This document shows, piece after piece, positions 1 through 38,152 of a stretch of 64,000 bases of DNA. Each line of letters starts with the position of its first letter. Within the stretch, counting starts at the first letter, position 1. The notes beneath the pieces were generated by a model. That model saw only the letters and a program-made list of their open reading frames with translations, did no database searches and was not told where the DNA came from. The translations under genes and the position numbers were made by a program. This stretch comes from Pseudomonadota bacterium (GTDB lineage: Bacteria; Pseudomonadota; Gammaproteobacteria; Pseudomonadales; Moraxellaceae). The DNA lies in the NCBI GenBank assembly GCA_021833365.1, contig JAKBFV010000001.1, forward strand, positions 2,750-66,749. The letters are read 5' to 3'.

Positions 1-996
1 AAAATTTTCGGCCACGATTGAGTCAGCATGCTCGCTAAAACTATTGAAGAGCTCACTCCATAAGTTCATGCGTCCGGCCATGATCAAACGCTCGAACGTT
101 TTAATCGCCCCATTTATGGATTCTCGGCATTTTTCGAACTCTGGATCAACCTTGGCGATGAAATTTCGGTGCTCCTTGAGTGCCTGCTGCAGAACACCGA
201 TATTCTCAGCCAGCAGTTCGCGCACTTTAACCTTGTTGCTTTCTATGATGTCTTCTCTGAATGTACCCAGTCTGGCGTGCAAAACTTGGGCAAGCGCCTG
301 CATCTGGCTGAACTCGAGCATGGCTCTGGTTAACGCGAAATGCTTCAGGTAATTGCGTTGCTGGATCACTAAGTCAGCGTCGCGCGATGGGTGGATGCTC
401 GTTTTCCCGGTGCCTGGACTTATCGCCAAGGACGAAAAGGCAAGCAACCCTTGGACACAGTGCCCCGGAAGAAGAACATCCATACCCAATACTGACTTCA
501 GAACATCCATTGTTTGCTTTAACGCAGTGCCAGCACTGCTATGGCTTTCCAGCGACTCCCGATCTTCATCAAACTCATATGCATCAGCATTGCCACGCAC
601 ATTGACGATTGGGCAAACTTGAGTGCCGCGGCGTAGGTATGAATGGATCTTTTCGGCCGTCGCCTTCTCCGGCTTTTTATTAGTTCCATTAACGTAGAAC
701 ACCAGATGGGCCTTGGCTATGGCCTCACGCACCATATGTGCATACTTGTTCTCATCGCCCTCGATGCCTGGAACATCAATTAGCTGAAAGGTTTTTCCCT
801 TGTAGTTGAGCGTATAGAGGGTGTTGCCTTTGGTGAAGTCTGCTGCGCCGGTGCCGATGATCCGCCCGTCTACTCGGCACACTTCTACTCTTTGCTTTTC
901 CAGTGATATTGCCGATTGCGTCAAAGCCGGGAATCGAGCACTCAGGAGATCCTCTAACTTTTCGGACGGACTGATCAATTCTATCGCACTTGTCAT
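1..996 (-). CDS. GTPase-like protein, distal part of a split P-loop GTPase (partial, 3' end beyond left edge)
   Basis: Not in the ORF track because it runs off the window. Hand translation from ATG 996-994 is open for all 332 codons down to nt 1 (MTSAIELISPSEKLEDLLSARF...). It contains a DxxG-type G3 motif (FQLIDVPGIEGDE) and a possible degenerate G4 (IVNVRGNAD), then a long helical region. The ATG lies 1 nt after the TAA of ORF 998-1561. AT-rich. Confidence 0.6.
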   Translation of the reverse strand, partial: MTSAIELISPSEKLEDLLSARFPALTQSAISLEKQRVEVCRVDGRIIGTGAADFTKGNTLYTLNYKGKTFQLIDVPGIEGDENKYAHMVREAIAKAHLVFYVNGTNKKPEKATAEKIHSYLRRGTQVCPIVNVRGNADAYEFDEDRESLESHSSAGTALKQTMDVLKSVLGMDVLLPGHCVQGLLAFSSLAISPGTGKTSIHPSRDADLVIQQRNYLKHFALTRAMLEFSQMQALAQVLHARLGTFREDIIESNKVKVRELLAENIGVLQQALKEHRNFIAKVDPEFEKCRESINGAIKTFERLIMAGRMNLWSELFNSFSEHADSIVAENF

Positions 997-997
997 G

Positions 998-1561
998 TTA
1001 GACTCCCACAAGCATGGCGAACGCACCCGTCACCACAACCCCCAGCGACGCGCCACCAATGGCAAACAGCCATAGTTTGCGTTTCATCCGGGCGGAGGAT
1101 TCCTCCTGCAGCATCCGACTCAATACAGCAGCGCCCTTTTTTATCGCTATAACTTCGGCAGCAAATTCTGCGTAAACACTTTTCAGTCCCTCGCTGACCT
1201 GATTCACGTGGTCAGAAAGCGCAAGTTCAAATTTCACTATATCCTGGGCATTCTGCTGCAGCAGTTTCTGACGGGAATCTTCGTTGAACAAGATGCGTAG
1301 CGACTCGATGATGGTGCTCTTGCCGGCATTAGTTTCACCGAAAAATGCTATGGTGAATTTTTCCCACTCAGCGTGCTGTTCTAGCAAATCCAATTCGCCA
1401 TCAAATCGAGCCTGGATTCCGCGCAGTCTTTCCATCATGTTGCTGAGTTCTTGTTTACCATCCTTATGTTCTACCTTAAGGTCGGCAACCTCCGTTATGG
1501 CAGCAGCGATGCTTTTTGAAACATCCTCGTACAGTCGACTAAACTCTTGACCCGTATTCAT
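998..1561 (-). CDS. coiled-coil P-loop (G1/Walker A) protein with C-terminal transmembrane anchor
   Basis: 187 aa. FFGETNAGKSTIIESL is a GxxxxGKS/T P-loop. The N-terminus is helical and the C-terminus has a hydrophobic helix (LWLFAIGGASLGVVVTGAFAMLVGV). The ATG at 1561 is preceded by a GGTGAGGG RBS. No DxxG or NKxD motif inside this ORF. Confidence 0.65.
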   Translation of the reverse strand: MNTGQEFSRLYEDVSKSIAAAITEVADLKVEHKDGKQELSNMMERLRGIQARFDGELDLLEQHAEWEKFTIAFFGETNAGKSTIIESLRILFNEDSRQKLLQQNAQDIVKFELALSDHVNQVSEGLKSVYAEFAAEVIAIKKGAAVLSRMLQEESSARMKRKLWLFAIGGASLGVVVTGAFAMLVGV

Positions 1562-1686
1562 CCCTCACCACCCCCATATTTTCCGACAGTCTGTCAGGAT
1601 TCTTATAAATTCGAATCCGTTGTCTTAGACAATCAAACAGCAAAATTCAACGCGATTGCTAAACCCAAAAGCGCAAACTTCACATT

Positions 1687-2253
1687 TTAAGCGCCTAAGA
1701 TAACACTAACAACGCACCCTATAGTACCGCCCAAAACAAATCCCATTACCGTCCCTGACCATCTTATAACCTCCAAGTGCGAACGTGTATTGTTCTCTAA
1801 ATTATCTCTGAACTGTTTGTCTTCCAATTTATTTAATGATTCAGATACAGACTTACCAATATAATCAGACAAGTCATCATTCAAAAAATCTTCAATCTTC
1901 CTCATTGCCTGATCGACAACATCCCATTCAATAAGTCTATCAAGTTGGCGAAGTTGATTACGTTGAGAGCATAGCTCATTAGCCAACAAATCTATAACGA
2001 CACTCTCTAGGTTATCAAAAAAACTATCCACGCATTGTTTTTTATTGTTCTCAGGAAGACTATTCCACGAATTGACATAAGCAGGGTATGCAACCTTAAG
2101 ACATGCATCCAGATGCGTTTTTATTGGTGACGATGCATTTAAAAATTCAAACTTTTCTTCAACAAGCCTTTTCCCAATACTTTCTAGGGATTTTGAGATG
2201 TCATGCGATTTAATAAAAACCCCCTTAAACCATCCAACATCAAACTCTTCCAA
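1687..2253 (-). CDS. hypothetical tail-anchored membrane protein
   Basis: 188-aa ORF in the AT-rich cluster. Acidic helical body with a single C-terminal hydrophobic helix (VMGFVLGGTIGCVVSVILGA). The start codon is TTG (2253), 17 nt after the stop of the upstream ORF. No recognisable family. Confidence 0.5.
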   Translation of the reverse strand: MEEFDVGWFKGVFIKSHDISKSLESIGKRLVEEKFEFLNASSPIKTHLDACLKVAYPAYVNSWNSLPENNKKQCVDSFFDNLESVVIDLLANELCSQRNQLRQLDRLIEWDVVDQAMRKIEDFLNDDLSDYIGKSVSESLNKLEDKQFRDNLENNTRSHLEVIRWSGTVMGFVLGGTIGCVVSVILGA

Positions 2254-2270
2254 AATAGCATCGCGAAGTT

Positions 2271-2867
2271 TTAATACGCTATCTTTTTTGACAGCTCAAC
2301 AAGTGATTTTCCAAAACAGTTCACAAAAGCCTTTTCAACGCTACCATCTCCAACAGCATTGGAAATGACAGCAATCTCATTACTATTCAATTTGTAATTG
2401 ATAATTTTGTCATGAACGAACTGCCGAACATGCTCACTCCAAAGCGACTCCAGCATTTCAGCAGCTTGCCGCTTATCTCCAAGTATCTTGTCCAGCCACA
2501 AGTACACCTTGTCCTTTGTATCTTTATCATGAGTTAGTTCATGCAATCGATTTCGAATTTCCTTTGAATTTATAATTTCACTTTTAACCCATGCGCCGAT
2601 TTCATTCGAAACTACTTTTTTATTTTTTTCAACAGTGCCATACATTTTTTCAATCGCAAACCAATCACACAAACCACCTACCAACGCTCCTTCGGCCGCA
2701 TGCAAAAGAATATCTAATATTAAACTTTTTCCAAAACGCTCAATAAAAAACAGCACAATCAACAACGAAACACCTGCCGCAAGAAGAATGGACAGGCTGA
2801 TCGTTTTTTTAACAAAGAATGGTCTACCTACACCCAAGAATGATTCAACCAGATTATTATTTGTCAC
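2271..2867 (-). CDS. membrane protein, DUF445-like N-terminal motif
   Basis: 198 aa with a GTG start. N-terminal TM helix (ISLSILLAAGVSLLIVLFFI) is followed by GALVGGLCDWFAIEKMYG. This resembles the conserved GGlADWFAV motif of DUF445/YjiN-type proteins, recalled from memory and not verified. Confidence 0.5.
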   Translation of the reverse strand: MTNNNLVESFLGVGRPFFVKKTISLSILLAAGVSLLIVLFFIERFGKSLILDILLHAAEGALVGGLCDWFAIEKMYGTVEKNKKVVSNEIGAWVKSEIINSKEIRNRLHELTHDKDTKDKVYLWLDKILGDKRQAAEMLESLWSEHVRQFVHDKIINYKLNSNEIAVISNAVGDGSVEKAFVNCFGKSLVELSKKIAY

Positions 2868-2960
2868 ATTTAATCAACCAGAAAGAGTTAACATTACACA
2901 TCTTAAACAAGCCCATTCATGTCATCATGCGACACAAACGCAACACCAATATTTGTCATT

Positions 2961-3419
2961 TTATTCATACAGATTATTCGCATACCTTTCTTCAATTTGC
3001 GCTACAACTTCCCCAAAAAATTTAATTTGAAACCGCACGTCTGCGATCTCTTTATGAAAATGTTCAGCATTTACCTTCAAGCGATCTTCAATCATTTCTA
3101 ACTTATTAACAGCTGCACTGATGCGAGCAGCTGCCCTTGCATCTCGATGCTTCTTGTCCAAAACATATTTTGGATCTTTGGCGGCAATTGACTCCTTAAA
3201 ATGCTTCAGCCCCATAAAAAATCGTGAGCATCCTGGAATAAACAATACCATTAATTCTGGAACATAAAATGCCTTATCTAGCACAGTCATTGGCCCATCT
3301 TCAAAAGCATGTCTTAGCTGATTCTTAACATCATTAAGGTCATGCTCAATTTGATCTTTTATACTGCGCAGATCTTCAGAATCCGTTGTTGTCATATTAA
3401 CATTACCTTCAATTTTCAC
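2961..3419 (-). CDS. hypothetical helical protein
   Basis: 152-aa ORF with a GTG start at 3419. The ATG at 3395 with an upstream GAAGG is a likely true start (144 aa). Charged helical sequence with one short hydrophobic stretch (VPELMVLFIPGCSRFFMGL). No family recognised. Confidence 0.5.
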   Translation of the reverse strand: MKIEGNVNMTTTDSEDLRSIKDQIEHDLNDVKNQLRHAFEDGPMTVLDKAFYVPELMVLFIPGCSRFFMGLKHFKESIAAKDPKYVLDKKHRDARAAARISAAVNKLEMIEDRLKVNAEHFHKEIADVRFQIKFFGEVVAQIEERYANNLYE

Positions 3420-3543
3420 TGACAGCCATTAACACACTTAATACCACAGCCTGTCTGATCACAATAGCAATCTAAAATACTAAGAAATTCTTTTAGACTT
3501 ATACGTCTTGACTATCAAAATCATCCAAATAAAAAAATAATGC

Positions 3544-3807
3544 TTACTCATCAACCTTATCTTGGTTTCTTTTAATGTATTCCAGCATCTCGTTCATTCT
3601 CTCTTTATCCGAGGACTCTGAGTGTTTTAGTTGAGGTGTGAATATTTTATCCAACATTCCAGCCTTACTTGAACTGATCTTCCCGCCGCATCGCGGGCAT
3701 CTTCTGGGTGGAGCAAAGAATGAAATCGCATCGCTCTTATAATGATGGATGGCGCTCCAGCTACAATTCTGGCATTTGAACTTTAATGTCCCAGGTGGCA
3801 TTACCAT
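3544..3807 (-). CDS. small Zn-ribbon protein
   Basis: The track ORF 3544-3894 overlaps the upstream gene. The ATG at 3807 sits 2 nt downstream of the WYL gene's stop (TAG, 3812-3810) and gives 87 aa: MVMPPGTLKFKCQNCSW...RRCPRCGG, i.e. two CxxC pairs (Zn ribbon) plus a charged C-terminal helix. Confidence 0.55.
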   Translation of the reverse strand: MVMPPGTLKFKCQNCSWSAIHHYKSDAISFFAPPRRCPRCGGKISSSKAGMLDKIFTPQLKHSESSDKERMNEMLEYIKRNQDKVDE

Positions 3808-3809
3808 AG

Positions 3810-4769
3810 CTATACATTCTCCTGTTCTTGCTGCTTGCCACTTTCTGCAAGATTTGGAGTGAGACGTTCTGCCTGCATGGCTCGTAGCCACCACTGCAGC
3901 TGCAGCGTATCCGCTACCGTTGCAGTGACTTTGACGCGACCATCCGGTTGCTTTTCCAGTTGCTGGTCTTCACTTAAGCGACATTCTGTCAAATGCTCTG
4001 CCGCCGCCTCTGAAAACAGCGCCTGCATGCATACCTGTTGGCCGTTGCCAAAGCCCATACCGCCCTGTTCGATGAATGCGTCGAGATCAAATTCTTCCGT
4101 TCTCTCTGCTCTCGCCTCCTGCATTTCAGCTGAGAACATACGGTGCATCGCGTAGCTGCGTATTCCCTCAGCCCCCTGCATTCGCGCTAGAAGGTATAAA
4201 ATAGGGCCGCGTTGTACCAGTCCTAGAGGATGCAGGCAGAGCCGCTGCGTGGCCTGTTTTGAGCGGCTCTCGTAAACCACGTCCACCTGGTGATTGAGCA
4301 GCAGAGCCTCTTGCACTTGTGCCAGCACCTTGGCGTTAATTTCGGGTGGAATCAACGGCTGATTGGCGGGAACAACCCTGACCTTATGAAACCAGGGTTT
4401 TTGTTCATGCTGCACCTGTTGCCGGGCATGTTCAAACCATGGACGCAATTCATCGAATACAATAGCCGGCATCAGGAGCTTCAGGTGCTCTTCAGCCATG
4501 AGAAAGACCAGTGCTTTACTCGGTTGTATGAGCGGTTGCAAGGGGGCTTTATCGGAGTCCATCCACCAACCTTGTGGATTCTCACCATCACTCTCAATGG
4601 GAAATATTTCTTTCAGTTCATTCAAATCACGCTGAATGGTTCGCAATGGAACATCAACATTAGCCAACTCTTTAAGTTGCCTTTCAATGTCACGGGTGCC
4701 AACACGTCGTGTTAAACATTGCAGAACCAATAATTGACGCTGCGTAACTTTTAAAGATTCTCCCTTCAT
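3810..4769 (-). CDS. WYL-domain transcriptional regulator (wHTH-WYL-WCX; YafY/BrxR/CapW type)
   Basis: 319 aa. N-terminal wHTH (LRTIQRDLNELKEIF). Central WYL-like segment (HPLGLVQRGPILYLLARMQGAEGIRSYAMHRM). The C-terminal extension has typical length for the family. ATG at 4769. Confidence 0.8.
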   Translation of the reverse strand: MKGESLKVTQRQLLVLQCLTRRVGTRDIERQLKELANVDVPLRTIQRDLNELKEIFPIESDGENPQGWWMDSDKAPLQPLIQPSKALVFLMAEEHLKLLMPAIVFDELRPWFEHARQQVQHEQKPWFHKVRVVPANQPLIPPEINAKVLAQVQEALLLNHQVDVVYESRSKQATQRLCLHPLGLVQRGPILYLLARMQGAEGIRSYAMHRMFSAEMQEARAERTEEFDLDAFIEQGGMGFGNGQQVCMQALFSEAAAEHLTECRLSEDQQLEKQPDGRVKVTATVADTLQLQWWLRAMQAERLTPNLAESGKQQEQENV

Positions 4770-5060
4770 GCTGACAACCTTCTGGCCATTAATAATGAAG
4801 GAATAATGACATTCACTTTACGACAATTCATCGTTGCTCTCCAAGCCGACCGCTGATGTGCATACCGCATAAGAGGTTGGTCGATATCCCCAACGAAAAC
4901 GTAAGAACCTGCCAAGGCTAGCATAATTAGTGTCTGCATCAAGATGGTTCTCATCATGTTCAGCTCTGAATTTTTGCATCTTAAAATTTATTTCATTTAA
5001 CGCCGATTCATGCTCCTGCTGAACCGGCCTCAAAGAGAACTACATATCAATGAAATGTGG

Positions 5061-5906
5061 TCACATGGCCTGAATTTCTTGTGTGCGTTTCTGTGTCAAG
5101 CTGAGCAGACACTGCAAAGCCGCCCGCTGGGCATCAGCTTCAGACGCATTCATGGATCCACAGGAGGCGTCTCGCTGCTTGATCCAGGCGCGTTGCTGAT
5201 CGCGCACTCCTTGCCGTAGCGCTGGTCCCAACCTCGCCATCATTGCCTTGTACGATTCATTGAGCTGTAGGTCTGCCTGATTGTAGGCATCAAGCAAGAT
5301 TGCTGTCGTTGGAATGGTCGCTGCCTGTGTTGCCGGCGCACTCACCACTGGAGCTGGAGCTGGAGCTGGAGCTGGAGCTGGAGCTGGAGCTGGAGCTGGA
5401 GTCGGGGTGTTGTTGGCCAGGGTGGGCGCGCTACTAGTGGCATACTCTGCCTCATATTGCGCCAGAGTCTTGCTATTATGTTCCTGGATGGCTCCGATCA
5501 CAGCGAGGATCACAAACAACGCAGCGGCGGATGCCAGCATCGAAAAGGCAGCGATGTCCCATTTTCTCTGTACCGCCCTGAAGTGATCAACATCGCGCCA
5601 TGTGCCATTTCGCCAGGCCCACTCGCGCCCCTTCACCGCCAGCACGAAAGGCATGACCAAACCCAGCACCGGCACCAGTGACAAGAGACCCACCCATGTC
5701 TTGTTGCCGATAGCCCAGATCAGATTGAGAAACAGCGCTCCCCACGACCATCCTGCCACCCCTTCAGGCAGAGGTGGGGGTGGTGGAGAAGGCTGACTTG
5801 CTACCTGCGCTGCCGTCTGTCCTTGCGCAAGCGCTCCGCAATGCGGACAACTCAGCGCGCTATCATGGATTTGCTGACCACATCCCCTGCAAAACATCAT
5901 GCCCAT
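5061..5906 (-). CDS. Zn-ribbon / membrane / DUF1311 (LprI-like) domain protein
   Basis: 281 aa. N-terminal double CxxC (FCRGCGQ...CPHCG), a Pro-rich linker, 2-3 hydrophobic helices and a (PA)n linker. The C-terminus carries the QRAWIKQRDASC signature typical of DUF1311. RBS GAGGAG upstream of ATG 5906. Confidence 0.7.
   Translation of the reverse strand: MGMMFCRGCGQQIHDSALSCPHCGALAQGQTAAQVASQPSPPPPPLPEGVAGWSWGALFLNLIWAIGNKTWVGLLSLVPVLGLVMPFVLAVKGREWAWRNGTWRDVDHFRAVQRKWDIAAFSMLASAAALFVILAVIGAIQEHNSKTLAQYEAEYATSSAPTLANNTPTPAPAPAPAPAPAPAPAPVVSAPATQAATIPTTAILLDAYNQADLQLNESYKAMMARLGPALRQGVRDQQRAWIKQRDASCGSMNASEADAQRAALQCLLSLTQKRTQEIQAM
5348..5401. repeat. perfect tandem hexanucleotide repeat (CTGGAG)x9, encoding the (PA)n linker on the minus strand
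   Basis: Read directly from the sequence: ctggag repeated nine times with no interruption, in frame within CDS 5061-5906. Confidence 0.9.
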
Positions 5907-5933
5907 TTTTAAGTCTCCTCGAAGATTTTCAGC

Positions 5934-6151
5934 TCAAACGCAGTATTTTTGGGTGAATTCCTGGTCGTTGGTACCGGTCAGGTAGATGATGCCTTCGACC
6001 AGGGCGACCAAAGAAGGAATCCAGGTCCAGAAAAACACCAGGTACAGGAAGCCGAGGCCGGTTTTCCCGCAATAAAACTTGTGGGCGCCAAAGCCGCCCA
6101 GGAAGAAGGCCAGCAGGATGGCCGTTACTCGACTGCGCGGATTAGGCGCAT
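5934..6151 (-). pseudogene. TM2-domain protein gene, 5'-truncated fragment
   Basis: Hand translation of the minus strand gives ...AILLAFFLGGFGAHKFYCGKTGLGFLYLVFFWTWIPSLVALVEGIIYLTGTNDQEFTQKYCV*, with the stop at 5936-5934. GGFGAHKFY-G is the TM2-domain signature. The frame has no start codon and runs into the MITE-like element, where a stop lies at about 6162. Confidence 0.6.
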
Positions 6152-6330
6152 GGCGGTATTGTCAGGTTAACTTTCCCTGGGAAAATGCGTTCCCACTTAG
6201 ATGGGGATTTAATGCATGAAACACGCAAAAATCCCCACCTAAGTGCTCTGGATGGCATTAAGCGAGCCCCCTTGGCCCCACTTCTGGTCGCGCACTTGCT
6301 GATAAATGCGTTAACGTGACAATACCCCCC
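6152..6330. mobile_element. MITE-like element (~180 bp) bounded by 18/20 terminal inverted repeats
   Basis: Left end GGCGGTATTGTCAGGTTAAC (6152-6171). The right end, reverse-complemented, reads GGGGGTATTGTCACGTTAAC (6329-6310, one more G at 6330). There is an internal 16/17 inverted repeat: CACTTAGATGGGGATTT (6194-6210) with AAATCCCCACCTAAGTG (6229-6245). No ORF. Flanked by two different truncated genes and no target-site duplication is visible. Confidence 0.4.
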
Positions 6331-6836
6331 AGCTCATCCAGGATGATGAGATCGGCATCGACCAGCCGGTTGGCCAGTTGTCCTTGCTTGCCGACAGCCT
6401 TTTCCTGTTCCAGCACGTTCACCAGTTCAATGGTTGAGAAGAAGCGCACCCGCCGGCGTTGATGCTGGATGGCCTGCACGCCCAGAGCTGTGGCCAGATG
6501 GGTCTTGCCGGTGCCCGGCCCGCCCACGAAGACCAGATTGTGTCGTTCGGCCATGAAGTCACCGCCGTGCAGTTGCCGCACCAGGGCTTCGTCGACGGCA
6601 GACTGGCCGAAGTCGAAGTTGCTCAAGTCACGGTAATGCGGGAAGCGGGCACACTTGAGCTGGTAGGTGATCGAGCGCACATCGCGTTCTGCCACCTCGG
6701 CCTTGACCAGCAGATCCATCAGCGGCAGGGCCTCGTGATAACGTGGACCACCCTGCTGGGCCAGTTCCTGGAGGGTCTGGGCCATGCCATGCAGGCGCAA
6801 GTGTTTGAGCATGTGGAGGATGGCGTCATGCGACAT
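6258..6836 (-). pseudogene. istB: IS21-family helper ATPase IstB, 3'-truncated
   Basis: Walker A GGPGTGKTH and Walker B LIILDELG are present. The sequence diverges immediately after LDELG at about nt 6330 into the MITE-like element (GIVTLTHLSASARPEV...*), so the ORF is 192 aa instead of the roughly 250-265 aa typical of IstB. Confidence 0.75.
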
Positions 6837-8451
6837 GGCTCACCCCTCGCAGTGTGTCATAGCGGGCGACATTGGCTTGGGGCTCGACCTTCAGTTGCAA
6901 GGCCGGCGGTGTCGCCATGGGCGCGGGCGGCGTTTCTCCCAGCAGGCGGCTGAGGAGGTTGAGGATGTGCGTCTTCGAGGCGGCGCCGGCCTCCAGTGCC
7001 AGTTCGACCGCCGTCAACACGGCCTGCTCGTCATACTGCAGCACCAGCGAGAGTATCTCGACCATCTCGCGATCACCGCCAGGCCGTTTTAACAGGATAC
7101 CTTGCAGCCGGCGGAAGCCCTCGGGCATGGTCTTGAACGGCGCACCATTACGGAGTGCCCCTGGTTTACGCTGCACGGCGCCGAGGTAGTGGTGCCAATC
7201 GAAGACCGTACGGCCGCCATCGTGGGCCCGGTTGATGTGGCGGGCGTGCTCGGCGATGACATTGCCTTCAGCGACCATCACCACGCGGTCATGGTACAGG
7301 CGCGCGCTCACCGGCCGGTTGGCGAAGCTGGCCGGCACACTGTAGCGGTTACGGTCCACATGCACCAGGCAGGTGGGGGTGACCCGTTTGGTCTGCTCGA
7401 TGAATCCATCGAAGGGGCCGGCCATGGCGGTTAGCTCAGGGACTTCCTCCTGCATCATCTCGGCGATCGTGCGCTGTCGTTGCTCAGGGTGCGGCAGTTC
7501 CTGCCACAGCGTCTTGCAGCGCTGTTCCAACCAGTCGTTGAGCGCGGCCAGCGACGGCATTGGCGGTGCCTCGCTCCACAGGCGATGGCGGGCATCCTGG
7601 ACGTTCTTCTCGACCTGGCCCTTCTCCCACCCCGAGGCCACATTGCAGAAGTCGGGTTCATAGAGGAAATGGCTGACCATGGTGGCAAAGCGCTCGTTGA
7701 TGTCACGCTGCTTGCCACGCCTGACCTTGTCGACGGCGGTCTTCATGTTGTCGTAGATGCCCCGCTGTGGCACGCCGCCGAACACCGCGAAGGCATGGTT
7801 GTGGGCATCGAACAGCATCTCGTGGGTCTGCTGCCAGTAAGCCCGTACCAGGAATGCACGGCTGTAGCTGAGCTTGAAGTGCGCCACCTGAAGCTTTACC
7901 TTCTCCCCATTGATGCTGGCATGGTCCTCGCTCCAGTCGAACTGGAAGGCCTCGCCGGGTGCGAAGGTCAGCGGCACAAATGCCTTGCCGGCGCCTTGGG
8001 CCCGATCCATCTCGGCCTGCTTCCAAGCCCGGGCAAAGGCGGCCACGCGATCATAGCTGCCGGTGTAGCCCCTGGCCTGCAGGGCGGCATGGAGTTGCTT
8101 GATGGTCTTGCGGTACTTGCGGGTGGCGCGCTGGTTGGCGGCCAGCCAGTCAGCCATGTCGGCCACGAAGGGATCCAGGGCGCTGCTGCCGTTGCGCTTG
8201 GCATAGGCAGGATTGAGCGCGCCAGACTTGAGGTACTTGTCGATGGTGTTGCGGGAAAGGCCGGTGCGCCGGGAAATCTCCCGGACGGACAGCTTGTCAC
8301 GGAAATGCATCCTTCGGATGAAGGTCAGTTGAGCCATGTCGATCACTCCTGGTGCTCCGAGTCGGGTAACGACCCAGAGGGTTGGGGTGATGGCTCAAAA
8401 TTCGATGCAAATCCCTAGGAAAAGTGGCTCAGTATTGGGTGCAACTCAACA
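6326..8451 (-). mobile_element. IS21-family insertion sequence, left end intact, right end deleted
   Basis: Has the istA-istB organisation. The terminus reads TGTTGAGTTGCACCC... on the minus strand from about 8451. It is followed by two subterminal direct repeats (TGGCTCAGTATT 8424-8435 and TGGCTCAAAATT 8390-8401 on the plus strand), as is typical for IS21 ends. No matching right end was found, and istB is cut at about 6330. Confidence 0.75.
6826..8346 (-). CDS. istA: IS21-family transposase IstA
   Basis: 506 aa. N-terminal HTH (LSVREISRRTGLSRNTIDKYLKSG) and a DDE integrase core. It overlaps istB by 11 nt, as is usual for IS21 elements. Confidence 0.9.
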   Translation of the reverse strand: MIDMAQLTFIRRMHFRDKLSVREISRRTGLSRNTIDKYLKSGALNPAYAKRNGSSALDPFVADMADWLAANQRATRKYRKTIKQLHAALQARGYTGSYDRVAAFARAWKQAEMDRAQGAGKAFVPLTFAPGEAFQFDWSEDHASINGEKVKLQVAHFKLSYSRAFLVRAYWQQTHEMLFDAHNHAFAVFGGVPQRGIYDNMKTAVDKVRRGKQRDINERFATMVSHFLYEPDFCNVASGWEKGQVEKNVQDARHRLWSEAPPMPSLAALNDWLEQRCKTLWQELPHPEQRQRTIAEMMQEEVPELTAMAGPFDGFIEQTKRVTPTCLVHVDRNRYSVPASFANRPVSARLYHDRVVMVAEGNVIAEHARHINRAHDGGRTVFDWHHYLGAVQRKPGALRNGAPFKTMPEGFRRLQGILLKRPGGDREMVEILSLVLQYDEQAVLTAVELALEAGAASKTHILNLLSRLLGETPPAPMATPPALQLKVEPQANVARYDTLRGVSHVA

Positions 8452-8839
8452 CTGAATTACCAAGCCATGTAAAAAGTGTGGGCATCAAGCATAAGAAACC
8501 GTGTGATCACATAAATTTCATTCTATTCCGCTTGCTATGCAAATTGAAAGCCCTAAGGTGTCAATCCCAGGGCGGCCCTGAGTCTATCCCCCGGCGATTT
8601 GGCCGAATCGCACATCCGGCACTTGGCTTCTTGGTTAAACAGCGCGTTCATGGAGTCCCTACACCCTTACGGTCCACGACTCCTGAATGGCATTCCTCAT
8701 GGTTCAACTCGCCTCAAGCCACCCCTCCAAGAGGGTTGGTGTTGGCGCGCAGCTTTTTCGCCAAGCCAGGGGTGCCACGTCGCAGTTCTTCGCTCCTGCC
8801 CGACCAACCCCCGCACGATTGACGGCAGACGCCGACTTC

Positions 8840-8884
8840 TTGTTGGAGGATGAGCAATACTGTAGAATGCAGTACATTTGCAGT
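8840..8884 (+). promoter_or_regulatory. sigma70-like promoter with overlapping repeat operator upstream of the RHH gene
   Basis: -35 TTGTTG (8840-8845), 17-nt spacer, -10 TAGAAT (8863-8868). TGCAGT direct repeats lie at 8868-8873 and 8879-8884 (11-bp phasing). TACTGTA (8858-8864) forms an imperfect inverted repeat with the first TGCAGTA. AGGAGA RBS precedes ATG 8901. Confidence 0.4.
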
Positions 8885-8900
8885 GGAGTCAGGAGAGGCT

Positions 8901-9095
8901 ATGGCCAACAGCAAAACCGCCACGCTGACCTTTCGGATCGATCCGAGCTTGAAGGAGGCATTGCTCGTCGCAGCTCACGCGGAGCATCGCTCCATCGCGA
9001 ACATGATCGAGGTCTTGATTCGTGGCTACTGCGAGCAGCGAGGCATTGCCATCCCCGACTCCGAAACCGAGAACAAGAGTGGAGAGCGTTCATGA
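8901..9095 (+). CDS. ribbon-helix-helix (CopG/Arc-type) DNA-binding protein
   Basis: 64 aa from the ATG with a good RBS; the track ORF starts earlier at 8850. TATLTFRIDPSLKEALLVAAHAEHRSIANMIEVLIRGY fits the beta-strand/helix/helix RHH pattern. The stop overlaps the next ATG (ATGA at 9092-9095). Confidence 0.7.
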   Translation: MANSKTATLTFRIDPSLKEALLVAAHAEHRSIANMIEVLIRGYCEQRGIAIPDSETENKSGERS

Positions 9096-12000
9096 TCAAG
9101 ACGGTTAAGCAGGCCTGCCGGTTCAATCCGGTCATTCAAGACTACCGGATGAGTCAGGGCATCGAGAACCTGGCCGATCTGATTCATGACGCGGGTGACG
9201 GTCGAGAGTTCTTCTCGCGCAACTTCGTCACGCACGGCATGGAGCAACTCTTCCGCGAAGGCCTACTGCGCCTGTCCGGTAAGTCTGATCAGGCCGTCTT
9301 CGAACTGACCCAAGCAATGGGTGGCGGTAAGACGCACATGATGATCGCGCTTGGTCTGCTGGCGCGGCATCCTCATCTGCGTCCGGAAGTCCTTGCCACT
9401 GACTTGAGTGATCGCGTGGATTTCGGTCAGGCCCGCATCGCCGCTTTCAACGGTCGCAACAACCCCGACAACTACATCTGGGGCGAAATCGCGACGCAGC
9501 TAGGCGAAGCCGAGGCCATTAAGCCCTACTGGGTCAATGGCCCCAAAGCGGTCGACCAACGTCAGTGGAAAGAAATCATTGGGGACAAGCCCACGCTGAT
9601 CTTGCTCGACGAGTTGCCCCCCTACCTTGACAACGCCAGCACCCAGGTGTTTGGACAGGGCACGCTCGCCAACATGGTGGTTTACAGCCTCAGCAGCTTG
9701 ATGAGTGCCGCGCTTGAGTTGCCCAACTGCGCCATCGTCGTCGCCAACCTTTCCGGCAGCTACAAAGCGCAGACCAAGGCTCTCGGGGATGCCATTTCCA
9801 ATCTGCAGCAGGAAACCCGCCGCCAGGCAATGACGATCACGCCGGTGCAACTGGCCGGTAACGAGATCTACGAGATCCTCAAGAAGCGACTGATTGACGA
9901 ACTTCCCGACGAGCGCATCATCGCTGACATCGCCGACGAATACGCCCAGCAGATCAAGAAGGCCGAAGATGGGGGCTACATTGTCGCCGCCAGCCTGGAA
10001 CAGATTGCCGAGCAAGTTCGCGAGACCTATCCGTTCCATCCCTCATTCAAGCATCTGGTCGCCCTGTTCAAGGAGAACGAAGGCTTCCGCCAGACCCGTG
10101 GCTTGATGCAGTTCACCGCCCGGTTATTGAAGAGTGTTGCGGAACGGGAAGCAGACGACGTTTTCCTCATCGGCACCCAGCATTTGGCACTCAATGACGA
10201 TCAAGTCAAAGACGAGATCGAACGCATCGCGCCAAAGTTGATGCCAGCCCTCACCCGGGACATCGCCGACAACGGTAATGCCATCGCGGAAACCATCGAT
10301 GACGAACTGGACGGCGATGCCGCCCAGCAAGTGATGACGCTGCTGTTGGCATCGTCCTTGTCTCGCGCAGTCGGTGGGCGAATTGGCTTGTCCGACAGCG
10401 AGATCATCGAGTTCTTGGCCGCGCCCAATCGCAAGGCGGATGAATTTCTCCAGGCGCTGCAACGACTCCGTGAGCACGCGTGGTATCTCCACCGCGAGGA
10501 TCAGCGTTTCTTCATCAAGGAAACCGAAAACCTCTCGCGCCAAATCGAACGCAACGCCAAGGAAGTACCGCAGCCCAAGGTTGACCAGGCGCTCATTAAC
10601 CGACTGACTGGCATCCTGCAGCCCGAGCGGCGCAACGCCTATCAGGATGTGCAGGTACTGCCGAAGCTAGACGAGCTGAAGCTCACCGGGCCGCGAACTC
10701 TAATTGTCATCAAGCCAGACGGCAAGGTGCCCCCGAGCGAACTGCAGAACTTCTTCGACTACCAGCAGGAGAAGAACAACCTGCTTGTGCTCACAGGCCA
10801 GGACAGTCATATGGCTGATGCGGTCGAGGATCGCCTGCGGGAGCTCTATGCCATTGAGCAGATTCACAAACGGCTGAAGGCTGGCGACACGCTTTTTGAG
10901 GAAGCACGCGACCGAATGGAAGAAGCCGAAGATCGCTTCGAGAAAGCCCTGTCGGCAGCATACAACCGCGTCTACTTCCCCAGTGTTGATGATCTGGATG
11001 GGCGCGAGTTTCTCGCGCCAGTCACCATCGACAACGGGTTGAAGCTGGGCAAAGGAGATCAATCCGCTGAGGCTCAGATCGAATCCCTGCTCGCCAGCCC
11101 GCGCGCCAACTACAAACTCGCAGCCGATCTCGCCGAGAACTTTAATGAATACTTTGCGATGGCTGAGGAATACCTCTGGCCATCAGGTAAGGACAACCGG
11201 CGCACCCCGTGGAAGGACGTCGTCAGCCGTGCCAAGAGCAATCCCGTTTGGCCCTGGATGCCCGGTAGCGGCGGTATGGACACCCTCAAGACGGAGGCAC
11301 TGAAGCAGGGTCGCTGGCGATTGGGTGAGGATGGGTATGTCGAAAAGGGACCCTTCCCAAAAGACAAGACCACTGTCAACGTCTCCGTGGTCGGTAGCCA
11401 TCCCGACACCGGCGAGACCATCTTGAGTCTCACCCCTCGGCACGCAGGCGAAAGCCCAATGGTCGTTTATGCAACCCGGCCAGAGGAACTGGTTACCGGG
11501 AAAGCGGTGGACGATCTGGATAGCTTCACGACCGGAGAAGGCACGCTCTACTTCCTGGCTAAAGATCAGACCGGTCAGTACGAAACTGGTGCGCCTGTTC
11601 GGTGGACTGCCGATCTCAAGATTCGCCACCAGGTTGATCCAGCCGCTGACAAGCGGCGCATCACCCTGGCGAGCACGCCCAAGGCAGATCTGTTCTACAC
11701 GCTGGATGGTTCCAATCCCAAGGACGGCACGCCCTACGAGGGTCCGTTCGAGATCGGGCCGCAAGCGGTACGCCTCTTGGTTTATGCACGCGCTGGTGAA
11801 GCCAACAAGACAGCGGACTTTCAGGTTCCTGCAAGTGGCGACAAGACGGTTCAGATCGTTGATACCAAGCCAGCCAAGCTGCAATCCAAGCGAGTCGCGC
11901 TCGACACCACTGACCGTGTCTATGGCGTCATCAACCGCTTCCGCGATCAGCCGGGCACTCGCTTTAAGGGTGTCCGCATTGAGATTGGCGAGGGTGAAAA

Positions 12001-12214
12001 CACTGTGACCATTCGCTTTCAAGAGCGAGAGGTAACCGCAGCAATGATTGAGGGTGTGGTGAACAGCCTTCGTCAGGTGTTGAACGAAGACCAAGCGCCG
12101 GTCGCCATCACCATTGCCGATGGCATCCAGTTCGACACAGGATTTGCTGCCAAAGAGTTCGCCAAGCTGGTGGGCATTGAGCTCAAGCCCGGCGACGTAA
12201 TTCAGGAGAACTAG
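9092..12214 (+). CDS. DUF499 / BrxC-PglY-like AAA ATPase
   Basis: 1040 aa from ATG 9092. The track ORF from 8687 is an upstream read-through with junk sequence. Walker A QAMGGGKTH, Walker B KPTLILLDELPPYL. Large helical middle and C-terminal beta-rich domains. Size and motif layout match the DUF499 family (COG1483). Confidence 0.85.
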   Translation: MIKTVKQACRFNPVIQDYRMSQGIENLADLIHDAGDGREFFSRNFVTHGMEQLFREGLLRLSGKSDQAVFELTQAMGGGKTHMMIALGLLARHPHLRPEVLATDLSDRVDFGQARIAAFNGRNNPDNYIWGEIATQLGEAEAIKPYWVNGPKAVDQRQWKEIIGDKPTLILLDELPPYLDNASTQVFGQGTLANMVVYSLSSLMSAALELPNCAIVVANLSGSYKAQTKALGDAISNLQQETRRQAMTITPVQLAGNEIYEILKKRLIDELPDERIIADIADEYAQQIKKAEDGGYIVAASLEQIAEQVRETYPFHPSFKHLVALFKENEGFRQTRGLMQFTARLLKSVAEREADDVFLIGTQHLALNDDQVKDEIERIAPKLMPALTRDIADNGNAIAETIDDELDGDAAQQVMTLLLASSLSRAVGGRIGLSDSEIIEFLAAPNRKADEFLQALQRLREHAWYLHREDQRFFIKETENLSRQIERNAKEVPQPKVDQALINRLTGILQPERRNAYQDVQVLPKLDELKLTGPRTLIVIKPDGKVPPSELQNFFDYQQEKNNLLVLTGQDSHMADAVEDRLRELYAIEQIHKRLKAGDTLFEEARDRMEEAEDRFEKALSAAYNRVYFPSVDDLDGREFLAPVTIDNGLKLGKGDQSAEAQIESLLASPRANYKLAADLAENFNEYFAMAEEYLWPSGKDNRRTPWKDVVSRAKSNPVWPWMPGSGGMDTLKTEALKQGRWRLGEDGYVEKGPFPKDKTTVNVSVVGSHPDTGETILSLTPRHAGESPMVVYATRPEELVTGKAVDDLDSFTTGEGTLYFLAKDQTGQYETGAPVRWTADLKIRHQVDPAADKRRITLASTPKADLFYTLDGSNPKDGTPYEGPFEIGPQAVRLLVYARAGEANKTADFQVPASGDKTVQIVDTKPAKLQSKRVALDTTDRVYGVINRFRDQPGTRFKGVRIEIGEGENTVTIRFQEREVTAAMIEGVVNSLRQVLNEDQAPVAITIADGIQFDTGFAAKEFAKLVGIELKPGDVIQEN

Positions 12215-12216
12215 AG

Positions 12217-12849
12217 ATGGCTCAATCCAAGGCGGCAAGCAGCGCGGCAAAAGGCAAAGCGGTCGGACAGAAAAATCTGCACCCTACGCTTGGCTTTGGC
12301 GTGCCTGCCACCTCGGACCCGCATCACTTCAAGGTCATCATTCCTCGGAGCAACACCGGGCGCGTGCAGATAAGTGAGTACCTCGGCATGCAAGCCACCG
12401 CCGATGAGCACGCGGTTATCGACCGCGTATTGCTGGATCGACCACGCTGGACGGCCATCCGCTCAGAAGTTCAGCGCGCATTCAATGCCCGGCTCAATGG
12501 GCACGGGCTCAAGCCTAGCGCCTGGAAAGTCGGCGACAACCCAGTGGACAGACTGTTGGGCAAGGAGCTCTGTGTCCTCGCGTGGGCCGTGGAACACATG
12601 GAGATTGAGAAAGTGCCGGTCGCCGTGAGGAATTGGCTGGCGCTGCGCCCCGAAGAGCGCTGGTGGCTCTTTGGCATGACGGCCATGAGCACAGGCGGCA
12701 TCAACGACAGTGACAAAGGTTGGCGGTTGGCGTTGCGCCACGCGCTTGGCGACGTCGCACAAAGCGAACTGCTGCAACCCAAGGCGCGGCATCAACGCGC
12801 GGGCGACGACAGCGACCGCCCGACCTTGGACCTATTTGGGAACGAATGA
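12217..12849 (+). CDS. small conserved partner protein (DUF3780 position)
   Basis: 210 aa, starting 2 nt after the DUF499 stop and ending 3 nt before the methyltransferase start. Basic N-terminus and Trp-rich core (WLALRPEERWWLFGM). Its size and its location between the DUF499 and DUF1156 genes match what I recall for DUF3780. Not verifiable here. Confidence 0.55.
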   Translation: MAQSKAASSAAKGKAVGQKNLHPTLGFGVPATSDPHHFKVIIPRSNTGRVQISEYLGMQATADEHAVIDRVLLDRPRWTAIRSEVQRAFNARLNGHGLKPSAWKVGDNPVDRLLGKELCVLAWAVEHMEIEKVPVAVRNWLALRPEERWWLFGMTAMSTGGINDSDKGWRLALRHALGDVAQSELLQPKARHQRAGDDSDRPTLDLFGNE

Positions 12850-12852
12850 AAA

Positions 12853-15816
12853 ATGAATGAAGCGGTAAGAACAACTACTCCCCTAGTTCCGCTGGCGCTC
12901 AAGGACGCACCGGCCCTGATTGAATCGGTGTTCCCTGCGCAAAAAGTCTCGTTCGAGGCGCAAGCCGAACGTAAAGCGGTTGCTGCCCAGACGCTGACTG
13001 GGTTGGGTTCCTATTGGAAAGGGCGTAAACCTCTGATCCTGGTGCGCGCCATCGTGCTTGGCAGCCTGCTGCCCGCGACTGACGACCCTGAACAAGACCT
13101 CGCGGTGTTCGAGAAGTTGATGGCCTTCGATGAGGAAAGCCTCGCAAGGCGTGCGCTAGCTGAAAACGCGCTGTCCGCGACGCGCTTGCAGGAACTGATC
13201 CCCATCAGCGACCCCGAGCGCTATTTTTCCGGACGGGGCTGGCGGCGCGACATCACCGACGATGACAAGCTGGTGCTCTATCGCAGAGCATTGGTGACCT
13301 TTGGTAGCTACGAGGAAAAGGCCGGTCTGGGCAAACGCCCCGAAGAAGTCGATCAGGAATGGCTTTACGCTCCGGCGTGGGAGGCCGTTAACCAGCATTA
13401 CGCGCATTTAGGCATCAACGCCAACAACATTGCCGAACTGGTTGAACAACTGGGCATGCTGCGCTACGGCCATCGGCCGAGGGCCGGTGATACCTTCAGT
13501 GGCGGTGGTTCGATTCCCTTTGAAGCAGCACGCATTGGCTGCGACGCCTATGCCTCCGATTTGAACCCGATTGCGTGCATGCTGACCTGGGGCGCACTCA
13601 ATGTCATCGGAGCCTCCCCCGAGCGCCGGGCAGAGATTGATCGGGATCAACAGGCTGTGTTTGATGTGATCGACAAGGAGATCACCAAACTAGGCGTCGA
13701 ACATGACGAGAAAGGCAACCGTGCCAAGGCGTACCTTTATTGTCTGGAGACGCGTTGTCCTGAAACCGGGTGGGTGATTCCGCTCTCGCCGAGTTGGGTG
13801 ATCTCGCCCAAACAAGGCGCGGTTGCGAAGCTCATCCCTGACGAGAAGAACAAGCGTTTCGACATCGAAGTCGTCACGGGAGCATCTGCAGCACAGATCG
13901 CGGCTGCCGATAAGGGCACCGTACAAGACGGGGACATGGTCTACACCCTCAACGGTCGCACCTATCGCTCACCGATCAAGACGCTGCGCGGTGATTTCCG
14001 TGATGCGGATGGCAATACCGGCAATCGCCTGCGTCGTTGGGAGAAAGATGAGTTTCATCCACGACCCGATGACATCTTTCAGGAGCGCCTCTACGCCATC
14101 CAGTGGATCACCAAGAAGTCCATCAATGCGTCGCGGCAGATCACCTATTTCTCCACGGTGACCGAGGCCGACCTCGCACGCGAGCAGAAAGTTGAAAAGC
14201 TGGTCGCCAACAATCTAGCCCAATGGCAGGCAGAGGGGCTCGCACCGGATATGGCCATCGAGCCAGGGGACAAGACCGACGAGCCAATTCGCACGCGCGG
14301 CTGGACGCATTGGCACCATCTGTTCAATGCGCGACAAATCCTCATACAAGCGATCACCCTGAAAGCCTGGAAGAGTTCTCCATCGGCTCCACTTGGCCGG
14401 TTAAACGTTGCCAAGGCAGCAGACTTTAATGCCAAGCTAAGTCGGTGGAAGCCCAGCCAAGGTGGCGGGTTGGGAGGCCCTGTCGGCGTCTTCTCTAACC
14501 AAGCCCTCAACACTTTCTATAACTACGCAACGCGCGCGTGGGCTGGCTTCGGGGCCTCCTCGTTCAAGATGGCGGATGCCCCACTGCCTGCCGTGGAGCG
14601 CTCCATCGTGTCTGCGCCTGCGGAGCGACCGACGCAGAGTTGTGAGCTCTGGATCACCGATCCGCCTTATGCCGACGCGGTGAACTACCACGAGATCACT
14701 GAGTTTTTCATCGCCTGGCTGCGCAAGAACCCACCCAAGCCATTTGACGAGTGGGTGTGGGATTCACGCCGCGCACTTGCCATCAAGGGTTCGGGTGAGG
14801 ACTTCCGGCGCGGAATGGTCGCCGCCTACAAGGCGATGGCGGATCACATGCCCGACAACGGCATGCAGTGCGTGATGTTCACCCACCAGGACACGGGTGT
14901 TTGGTCGGACATGGTCGGCATCTTCTGGGCTGCTGGCTTGCAGGTCGTGGCAGCCTGGTACATCGCCACCGAGACGACGTCCGAGTTGAAGAAAGGTGGC
15001 TACGTACAGGGCACCGTGATTCTGATGCTGAAGAAGCGTGCTGCAGGTGATCGTGCAGGCTTCAAGCAACGCATCCTTCCTGCCGTGCGCAGCGAAGTGC
15101 AGCGTCAGATTGAAACGATGATGCACCTCAACGACGAGGTGAAGAGCAAACACGGCGAGCCCGTTTTCAACGACTCCGACTTGCAGATGGCAGGTTACGC
15201 CGCCGCGCTTAAGGTGCTGACGGCCTATACGCAAATTGGTGGCGAGGACGTGACTGCTTTCGCACTGCGCCCACGCGTGCGCGGTGAGGTCACAGTGGTC
15301 GATGAAATCGTCCAACAGGCGGCAGAAGCGGCCAACAGTCTACTGGTGCCCGAGGGTCTGGCAGCCGACACCTGGGCCAAGCTGACGGGTATCGAGCGCT
15401 TCATGCTGCGCATGATGGACATGGAAACTACGGGCGCGGCCAAGCTCGACAACTATCAGAGCTTTGCCAAGGCCTTCCGGGTTGAGGACTACAGCCGAGT
15501 GATGGGCAGTATGGCGGCCAATCAAGCTCGACTGAAGCGCGTGCCCGAGTTTGCCTCCCGCGACTTGACCGACAGCACCGAGCTCGGTGCCACTCGACTC
15601 GGGCGCTTGATCATTGGCGTGCAACAGGTGTTGGCGGAAACCGAACCGCAGGCCATCGTCAGCCAATTGCAGGCCGAAATGGCCGACTTCCTCGAGGTCC
15701 GCTCACTGCTGGTGGATTTGTTGGCCTTTATTGAACGCAAAGCCCCGGAAGAGCAAGTCCGCGCCGGTGCTGAAGTTCTTGGCGCACGCCTGAAGAACCT
15801 GCGGTTTGGGGCCTAA
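12853..15816 (+). CDS. DUF1156-family DNA methyltransferase (DPPY, probably N6-adenine)
   Basis: 987 aa. N-terminal DUF1156-like region (FPAQKVSFEAQAERKA...YWKGRKPLILVRA). SAM motif I FSGGGSIPFEAARIGCDAYASDLNP. Catalytic motif IV LWITDPPYADAVNY. Confidence 0.85.
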   Translation: MNEAVRTTTPLVPLALKDAPALIESVFPAQKVSFEAQAERKAVAAQTLTGLGSYWKGRKPLILVRAIVLGSLLPATDDPEQDLAVFEKLMAFDEESLARRALAENALSATRLQELIPISDPERYFSGRGWRRDITDDDKLVLYRRALVTFGSYEEKAGLGKRPEEVDQEWLYAPAWEAVNQHYAHLGINANNIAELVEQLGMLRYGHRPRAGDTFSGGGSIPFEAARIGCDAYASDLNPIACMLTWGALNVIGASPERRAEIDRDQQAVFDVIDKEITKLGVEHDEKGNRAKAYLYCLETRCPETGWVIPLSPSWVISPKQGAVAKLIPDEKNKRFDIEVVTGASAAQIAAADKGTVQDGDMVYTLNGRTYRSPIKTLRGDFRDADGNTGNRLRRWEKDEFHPRPDDIFQERLYAIQWITKKSINASRQITYFSTVTEADLAREQKVEKLVANNLAQWQAEGLAPDMAIEPGDKTDEPIRTRGWTHWHHLFNARQILIQAITLKAWKSSPSAPLGRLNVAKAADFNAKLSRWKPSQGGGLGGPVGVFSNQALNTFYNYATRAWAGFGASSFKMADAPLPAVERSIVSAPAERPTQSCELWITDPPYADAVNYHEITEFFIAWLRKNPPKPFDEWVWDSRRALAIKGSGEDFRRGMVAAYKAMADHMPDNGMQCVMFTHQDTGVWSDMVGIFWAAGLQVVAAWYIATETTSELKKGGYVQGTVILMLKKRAAGDRAGFKQRILPAVRSEVQRQIETMMHLNDEVKSKHGEPVFNDSDLQMAGYAAALKVLTAYTQIGGEDVTAFALRPRVRGEVTVVDEIVQQAAEAANSLLVPEGLAADTWAKLTGIERFMLRMMDMETTGAAKLDNYQSFAKAFRVEDYSRVMGSMAANQARLKRVPEFASRDLTDSTELGATRLGRLIIGVQQVLAETEPQAIVSQLQAEMADFLEVRSLLVDLLAFIERKAPEEQVRAGAEVLGARLKNLRFGA

Positions 15817-15820
15817 GTGA

Positions 15821-18559: not shown

Positions 18560-18561
18560 CG

Positions 18562-24153: not shown

Positions 24154-24229
24154 TGGTGGCCCAGCCCAGAATCGAACTGGGGACACGCGGATTTTCAATC
24201 CGCTGCTCTACCAACTGAGCTACCGGGCC
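24154..24229 (-). tRNA. tRNA-Phe (anticodon GAA)
   Basis: 76 nt folded by hand: GGCCCGG TA GCTC AGTTGGTA GAGC A GCGGA TTGAAAA TCCGC GTGTC CCCAG TTCGATT CTGGG CTGGGCC A CCA. Canonical cloverleaf with an encoded CCA. Close to E. coli tRNA-Phe. Confidence 0.95.
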
Positions 24230-38145: not shown

Positions 38146-38152
38146 GGTCGTC

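Follow-up and report, generated by a model that had tools for sequence, protein, structure and literature searches.

Does the gene cluster at the left edge of a 64,000-nucleotide stretch of Moraxellaceae DNA encode a new membrane-acting defense system, or does it belong to a system that has already been described? The stretch, here called the window, covers positions 2,750 to 66,749 (forward strand) of contig JAKBFV010000001.1 in the Pseudomonadota assembly GCA_021833365.1. A preliminary description, made from the sequence alone, pointed to seven consecutive minus-strand open reading frames (ORFs) running from position 4769 to the left edge, with a WYL-domain regulator at the head and a membrane-anchored GTPase split over two ORFs, and it could not match this gene content to any named system. 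We found that the locus is a new instance of the known Eleos (LeoABC) system with a WYL regulator. The region very probably represents the promoter-proximal two thirds of a three-gene-type Eleos operon headed by that regulator.

All seven ORFs were present in the ORF list, at 4769..3810, 3894..3544, 3419..2961, 2867..2271, 2253..1687, 1561..998 and 996..1, the last being open at the left edge. The gaps between them are short, as described; for example, 1 nucleotide separates the LeoC stop codon (1000..998) from the LeoB ATG (996). The genes in this part of the window are as follows.

3810 to 4769, minus strand: WYL-WCX transcription regulator at the operon head, 319 residues (Pfam WYL 2.8e-13, WCX 2.2e-6)
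3544 to 3807, minus strand: zinc-ribbon protein ZnR, 87 residues, with the motif CxxCxW...SD...CPxC
2961 to 3395, minus strand: p144, a helical protein of 144 residues (152 residues from the GTG at 3419)
1687 to 2867, minus strand: DUF445 (YjiN-like) membrane-protein gene, frameshifted in the window (ORFs 2867..2271 and 2253..1687)
998 to 1561, minus strand: leoC, 187 residues (PADLOC LeoC 7.6e-65)
1 to 996, minus strand: leoB, N-terminal 332 of 558 codons, the window edge cutting the rest (PADLOC LeoB 8.6e-143, model positions 26-349 of 568)

LeoC, LeoB and LeoA

The two GTPase ORFs of the window gave only weak Pfam signals (Dynamin_N and MMR_HSR1). Searches with the PADLOC profiles assigned them to LeoC and LeoB of Eleos/LeoABC, so that the gene content does match a named system; the PADLOC LeoBC and LeoA models matched too. 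LeoC carries the P-loop GETNAGKST at about 1313-1339 and a hydrophobic C-terminal membrane anchor (residues 163-187, about 1001-1075). LeoB carries the DVPG switch-2 motif at about 766-777 and a glycine-zipper hydrophobic segment at residues 429-461. As judged from their sequences, LeoC is shown to be the P-loop half of a GTPase domain with a C-terminal anchor, LeoB the rest of the same dynamin-like protein, and LeoA a second dynamin-like GTPase. The view that the GTPase is dynamin-like and membrane-anchored was supported.

The preliminary description had proposed extending the contig leftwards, and the complete LeoB and LeoA were indeed supplied by eight metagenome contigs that align with window positions 1-9000 at 99.9% identity. 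Because these related contigs give the full LeoB and LeoA, the complete gene set, in operon order, is WYL, ZnR, p144, DUF445, leoC, leoB and leoA. In the contig L002, the complete LeoB (558 residues, L002:8971-10647) matched the PADLOC model over its whole length (1.5e-201). Next after leoB in the near-identical contigs is LeoA, with 580 residues, which matched the PADLOC LeoA model (4.2e-267, in L002), Pfam DLP_helical (4.4e-90) and the LeoA structure in PDB entry 4AUR (6.5e-248). The exact LeoC protein was present on at least 16 public contigs, the eight near-identical ones among them. LeoB is 45-49% identical to Escherichia coli LeoB (45% to that of enterotoxigenic E. coli [ETEC] H10407), and the nearest LeoB among the GTDB representatives is 58% identical. 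When E. coli genomes and plasmids were searched by megablast with positions 1-4769, no match was obtained, and leoB was found there only by the "distant" setting of blastn. Since LeoC, LeoB and LeoA are clear Eleos orthologs, the cluster is not a novel unmatched system. Its supposed absence from described systems did not hold, as the LeoABC/Eleos profiles match and the extended contigs have LeoA next in order.

The split of the GTPase had also been taken as a peculiarity of the locus, but it is the conserved LeoC/LeoB division that was described for ETEC H10407 in 2014. Michie et al. reported that in this strain a dynamin-like protein is split into LeoC, which has the P-loop, switch 1 and a C-terminal membrane anchor, and LeoB, which has switch 2 and the remainder (PMC4159319). 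The genes of the split protein precede the gene for LeoA, the second dynamin-like protein, which was soluble in that study; the split is kept in various bacteria, and dynamin-like pairs probably work as heterotypic complexes on the membrane (PMC4159319). ETEC H10407 and E. coli 97.3 both carry leoC-leoB-leoA, and the genes are annotated so in H10407. The window locus and the tia locus of ETEC H10407 share the genes, their order, the LeoC/LeoB split and an overlap of about 29 nucleotides between leoB and leoA. The ETEC locus, however, lacks the upstream WYL, zinc-ribbon, p144 and DUF445 genes and has tia there instead; its LeoC has 206 residues against 187 in the window, and the window locus sits in a defense island of a GC-rich host.

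A role in defense was demonstrated for a homologous two-gene operon of Bacillus vietnamensis, with protection shown only against the jumbo phages AR9 and PBS1 (Millman et al. 2022; for the name Eleos, see 10.1101/2022.12.12.520048). The P-loops of both proteins, LeoA and the fused LeoBC, were needed for defense, the operon family co-localizes with defense systems in 60%, and the first gene of the operon was noted to be split in ETEC (Millman et al.). The window locus resembles this system in its paired dynamin-like GTPases and its defense-island setting, but the tested Firmicute system has a fused LeoBC. Furthermore, the published definition of Eleos includes no regulator or accessory genes.

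The ETEC work raises another possibility, namely that the locus serves mainly in the secretion of membrane vesicles or toxin, the role first suggested for LeoABC, and not in defense. An ETEC leoAB mutant secreted less of periplasmic and outer-membrane markers, and the ETEC locus lies in a pathogenicity island (PMC4159319). In the window, however, the operon stands between other defense systems, beside a tRNA-Phe gene, and has a defense-type WYL head, while in the contig L004 the same block adjoins a BREX system. Genes for toxins or adhesins were not seen in the neighborhood. Together with the 60% co-localization and the P-loop-dependent phage protection in Bacillus, these observations make a mainly secretory role highly improbable.

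We then compared the locus with its counterparts in other genomes. The GTDB representative genomes were scanned with the LeoB alignment, which gave 42 loci, and 41 complete loci were compared. The order leoC-leoB-leoA holds throughout the 41 complete loci of other species, as it does in two genomes of E. coli. A homolog of the window WYL protein lay within 2 kb upstream of leoC in 12 of the 41 loci, with matches of 2e-20 to 2e-48 for those directly upstream of leoC, and 11 of the 41 have ZnR in the same interval. DUF445 was absent within 10 kb of all 41 loci, even at E ≤ 1 with the family hidden Markov model (HMM), and p144 was likewise found in none of the 41. The two E. coli loci examined have three genes only.

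As an instance of Eleos/LeoABC, the locus is not worth pursuing as a new system. What it adds to the known Eleos is a recurrent zinc-ribbon companion, an apparently lineage-specific DUF445/p144 insert and a swap of cargo in a sister lineage, which are of modest interest; the main value of the analysis is a correction, in that a suspected new defense system is resolved as Eleos/LeoABC.

The probable insert between ZnR and leoC

The preliminary description counted three small helical proteins in the middle of the cluster. One of these, p144, is indeed a separate protein, but the other two ORFs are halves of one DUF445 gene. The window has a run of six A residues (A6) at 2284-2289, whereas all eight contigs with 99.9% identity have seven (A7), and this difference is the sole insertion or deletion in 9 kb. 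In the A7 version, the ORFs 2867..2271 and 2253..1687 join as one ORF of 393 residues. The repaired protein matched Pfam DUF445 (PF04286) at 1.1e-13 and 52.3 bits, with a gathering cut-off of 33.8 bits; of the two window halves, the C-terminal one scored 37.6 bits and the N-terminal one 23.7 bits, which is under the cut-off. Transmembrane helices are located at the N-terminal and C-terminal ends of the repaired protein. Because the A7 contigs give one intact gene, the window contains either a frameshifted allele, with A6 as a genuine loss-of-function change, or an error in sequencing the homopolymer.

On the minus strand, the sequence at 2284-2289 reads TCA AAA AAG ATA GCG TAT TAA and includes an in-phase A_AAA_AAG, a classic slippery heptamer. 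A -1 slip at this heptamer would restore exactly the protein of the A7 allele. Programmed -1 frameshifting was considered here and rejected as the likely explanation: no structure was found downstream of the heptamer (z = 0.19), and the relatives all keep the frame. The heptamer was therefore treated as incidental.

The window copy shares with the DUF445/YjiN/YheB (UPF0754) family the conserved GALVGGLCDWFA motif, the PF04286 match over the cut-off and the transmembrane helices at both termini. It is unlike them in being island-borne, AT-rich and within a defense operon, whereas the distant relatives are found in ordinary chromosomal contexts. A word-indexed search recovered 6 homologous proteins and a metagenome scan recovered 4 distant loci in non-defense settings; neither search supported a general link between DUF445 and dynamins. 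The AlphaFold2 model of DUF445 was all-helical, with low to modest confidence (pLDDT 67.9, pTM 0.38). Foldseek comparison of the model with the PDB gave nothing better than E = 0.03 at a TM score of about 0.1, and a sequence search against solved structures gave no match. None of the known defense or anti-defense models in PADLOC matched DUF445, and the literature on DUF445 yielded nothing bearing on defense.

By database search, p144 is an orphan. Among 1.84 billion representatives, five matches were obtained at E ≤ 1e-3; four are same-lineage copies or fragments (62-90% identical), and the fifth is a protein of 637 residues, with seven short matching stretches at 31% identity. A weak alignment pairs residues 89-138 of p144 with LeoC residues 28-77 and ends at "FFGE" ahead of the P-loop; the same stretch was returned by three methods (PADLOC, E = 0.021; BLASTP, E = 0.019; and an HMM). 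When the HMM comparison was set against 1000 shuffles, the whole-protein score was reached by none of the 1000, and the best stretch or the C-terminal half was equaled by 5-6. This marginal likeness would fit an older recombination scar. That p144 might be a fragment of LeoC is a weak idea only.

The composition of the cluster is uneven. The GC fraction by kilobase is 0.50 (1-1000), 0.45 (1001-2000), 0.365 (2001-3000) and 0.41 (3001-4000), against 0.60-0.67 in most of the remaining window. The preliminary description gave 35-42% across positions 1-3500; the low GC content is real, but the uniformity is not. The reading of the block as horizontally acquired and as part of a defense island was supported. 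By gene, the GC fraction is 0.51 for WYL, 0.43 for the zinc-ribbon gene, 0.38 for p144, 0.37 for DUF445 and 0.49 for LeoC/B/A, and at third codon positions it is 0.31 for p144 and 0.33 for DUF445, against 0.51 for WYL and 0.53-0.58 for LeoCBA. From this distinct composition and the absence from the 41 loci, we infer that p144 and DUF445 form a lineage-specific, AT-richer insert which Eleos does not generally require.

These results bear directly on the proposal that all seven ORFs form one new membrane-acting system apart from Eleos, with DUF445 and the small proteins as obligatory partners of the GTPase. Such a system would fit the single strand, the tight spacing and the single WYL head. It would also fit the two transmembrane helices of DUF445 beside the membrane-associated LeoC and LeoB, and the sharing of the stretch from ZnR to the leoC 5' end with a sister lineage at 80-87% identity. 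However, LeoC, LeoB and LeoA are Eleos orthologs, the 41 other Eleos loci do without DUF445 and p144 within 10 kb, and the E. coli loci have only the three leo genes. The composition breaks at p144/DUF445, p144 is an orphan, DUF445 is frameshifted in the window, and its distant relatives occur in non-defense contexts. The idea of one integrated seven-gene module is thereby weakened, the more so as two of the ORFs are one frameshifted gene, and we regard a new system of this kind as very unlikely.

The sister lineage is represented by L011 and L012 (ENA ERZ27237230 and ERZ27237103), which come from the same metagenome series. In both, the block from ZnR to DUF445 is 80-87% identical to that of the window, with DUF445 itself at 87%. 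In L011 (L011:1-7000), p144 is decayed to a remnant of 49 residues. After DUF445, 53 codons of a leoC-derived ORF are left in both contigs, and past this remnant the cargo consists of an IetA-like AAA ATPase, a 412-residue protein, a ZorA-like protein and a ZorB-like protein, which may be an undescribed Zorya-like system. Since the sister lineage keeps the leoC 5' remnant before other cargo, recombination took place inside leoC, and the remnant offers a direct view of defense-cargo exchange within an island. In a third lineage (L013), a 59%-identical DUF445 stands immediately after a ZorB-like gene. That DUF445 travels with membrane-anchored defense cassettes is, from three lineages, a lead and not a finding.

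Such exchange suggests a different relation between the insert and the operon. The pair p144-DUF445 could be an independent, hitch-hiking cassette in the Eleos operon, either a membrane defense gene or a counter-defense gene, with the downstream cargo exchanged through recombination at the leoC 5' end. The AT-rich composition unlike that of the flanking genes, the DUF445 of L011/L012 followed by the 53-residue leoC remnant and the IetA-like/ZorA/ZorB-like cargo, and the DUF445 after the ZorB-like gene in L013 are all consistent with a cassette of this kind. A weak likeness of p144 to the LeoC N terminus is also what an older recombination scar would leave. On the other hand, only three lineages are involved, all from one metagenome set; the p144-LeoC similarity is marginal by the best-stretch and C-terminal-half shuffles (5-6 of 1000); and DUF445 matches no known defense or anti-defense model. 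We hold a hitch-hiking cassette to be a plausible but tentative account. It is unlikely, in our estimate, that the WYL-ZnR head and DUF445 together make up a reusable regulatory or sensor module whose membrane effectors are swapped inside leoC, with DUF445 and ZnR as accessory subunits that define an undescribed extended subtype of Eleos.

For the locus read as an Eleos operon with an insert, the intact A7 and frameshifted A6 alleles provide a natural comparison for asking whether DUF445 modulates a membrane-acting defense system. The lineages with Eleos and those with Zorya-like cargo provide a second natural comparison for the effect of DUF445.

The regulatory head

The presence of a WYL regulator at the operon head, claimed in the preliminary description, was upheld by the Pfam WYL and WCX matches of the 319-residue protein, which also aligned over residues 12-247 with the PADLOC WYL model PDLC01457 (4.1e-20). 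The adjacency of WYL genes and Eleos has already been catalogued (PMC13622015). The protein resembles the regulators CapW and BrxR, of wHTH-WYL-WCX architecture, in its WYL and WCX domains and in its position at the head of a defense operon on the same strand. It differs from them in its lack of a BrxR-specific Pfam match, in matching WYL proteins of known structure only weakly (E about 3e-4) and in the coupled zinc-ribbon gene that follows it, no such gene having been described for CapW or BrxR.

A 13-nucleotide inverted repeat (4757-4769 / 4795-4807; 85% complementary, 25-nucleotide spacer) brackets the WYL start codon; a search of three intergenic regions turned up no other repeat of this kind. 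The repeat may act as an operator for autoregulation or as a hairpin that sequesters the ribosome-binding site. Upstream of leoC (1562..1712, minus strand), a consensus scan found one sigma-70-like site, TTGTTA-17-TAAAAT, at 1712..1684, which is a possible internal promoter for leoCBA. The promoter and terminator scans gave site counts at or below the expectation from shuffled sequences.

The ATG of ZnR favored by gene callers (3807) lies 2 nucleotides past the WYL stop codon, which is consistent with translational coupling of ZnR to the WYL gene. No Pfam or PADLOC model matches ZnR. Its family comprises 119 protein clusters of about 65 residues, with the pattern MPIxPxPxTxxCxxCxW...SD...CPxC and a Pfam domain in none, mostly from Pseudomonas and Burkholderiales. 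Members recur beside WYL regulators and operons for dynamin-like or other GTPases (loci L016, L019, L024, L025, L037, L038, L043-L046, L050 and L061-L067), and a second copy is sometimes found downstream of leoA. Sampling from the family side gave three further contexts, two of them Eleos. The first is WYL, ZnR and a GTPase of 376 residues. The second, in Pseudomonas aeruginosa, is WYL followed farther on by LeoC, LeoB, LeoA and ZnR, with ZnR about 5.6 kb from WYL. The third, in Paraburkholderia, is WYL, ZnR, a 112-residue protein, a fused LeoBC and LeoA. Given these contexts and the upstream positions in 12 and 11 of the 41 complete loci, WYL and ZnR are a recurrent head of Eleos operons. It might be useful to include the ZnR family, for which Pfam and PADLOC have no model, in the annotation of Eleos and to test it for a co-regulatory role.

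A mechanism for the operon may be proposed from these parts. Like its relatives CapW and BrxR, the WYL-WCX protein would act as a repressor of the operon, and repression would be released once the WYL domain binds a ligand derived from infection or damage, such as single-stranded DNA. The coupled zinc-ribbon protein would be a recurrent co-factor of the regulatory head. LeoC-LeoB would assemble at the inner membrane and pair with LeoA, and GTP hydrolysis by the Leo proteins would remodel or seal the membrane and so block phage development. p144 and DUF445 would have been inserted later, between the regulatory head and leoC.

Several points weigh against reading the locus as a WYL-controlled Eleos defense operon. 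On the side of regulation, the N-terminal helix-turn-helix domain of the WYL protein is not significant (weak HTH_11, E = 0.21), and the BrxR-specific Pfam domains WHD_BrxR and BrxR_CTD were not detected in it at E ≤ 1, whereas the BrxR beside the same block in L004 has both. WYL control of the operon is inferred from position and family. On the side of function, the only Eleos that was tested is a two-gene Bacillus system, which was active against jumbo phages (Millman et al.); the ETEC locus was first tied to toxin and vesicle secretion (PMC4159319). Moreover, the window includes neither leoA nor the last 226 residues of LeoB, both of which are known from the 99.9%-identical contigs. Finally, DUF445 and the zinc-ribbon gene are intact in L011, so that DUF445 may serve some separate function.

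The surrounding defense island

A defense island beside tRNA-Phe takes up the leftmost 24 kb of the window. The features to the right of the Eleos block are as follows.

5061 to 5906, minus strand: LprI-domain membrane protein, 281 residues (Pfam LprI 6.1e-15; GC fraction 0.58)
6258 to 8346, minus strand: IS21-family istA (506 residues) and istB (192 residues), separating the Eleos block from the DUF499 operon
8687 to 12214, plus strand: DUF499 ATPase (PADLOC model)
12217 to 12849, plus strand: DUF3780 (PADLOC model)
12853 to 15816, plus strand: DUF1156 methyltransferase (PADLOC model)
15821 to 18559, plus strand: PLD-helicase (PADLOC model)
18496 to 19863, plus strand: PD-T7-3 homolog (1.3e-168)
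24154 to 24229, minus strand: tRNA-Phe, marking the inner boundary of the variable, low-GC region
36913 to 41793, minus strand: core-genome genes like those of the MSHA/type IV pilus or type II secretion (GspF/PilC-like, GspE/PilB-like and MshL secretin)

The second defense operon that the preliminary description placed nearby is there, with DUF499, DUF3780, the DUF1156 methyltransferase and the PLD-helicase followed by PD-T7-3 (8687-19863); three of the four PADLOC models of this operon matched with E = 0. The tRNA-Phe gene at 24154-24229 is likely the integration site of the island, and a tRNA-Phe gene (L010:13537-13612) likewise borders the E. coli 97.3 Eleos island. In L004, BrxR, BrxE and BrxA of a BREX system lie upstream of the Eleos block, at the place of the IS21 element of the window, and L003 and L005 diverge about 511 bp beyond leoA. 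The flanks thus vary between contigs, as expected of an exchangeable island cassette.

In every related contig the LprI-domain gene lies upstream of the WYL gene, but it is richer in GC. Its 281-residue product carries a zinc ribbon at the N terminus and an LprI (lysozyme-inhibitor) domain at the C terminus, together with transmembrane segments and a linker rich in Pro and Ala. In the core genome, the GspE/PilB-like protein of the 36913-41793 region has an MshE-type c-di-GMP-binding N terminus, and gshA and amiB are located to the right of these pilus/secretion genes.

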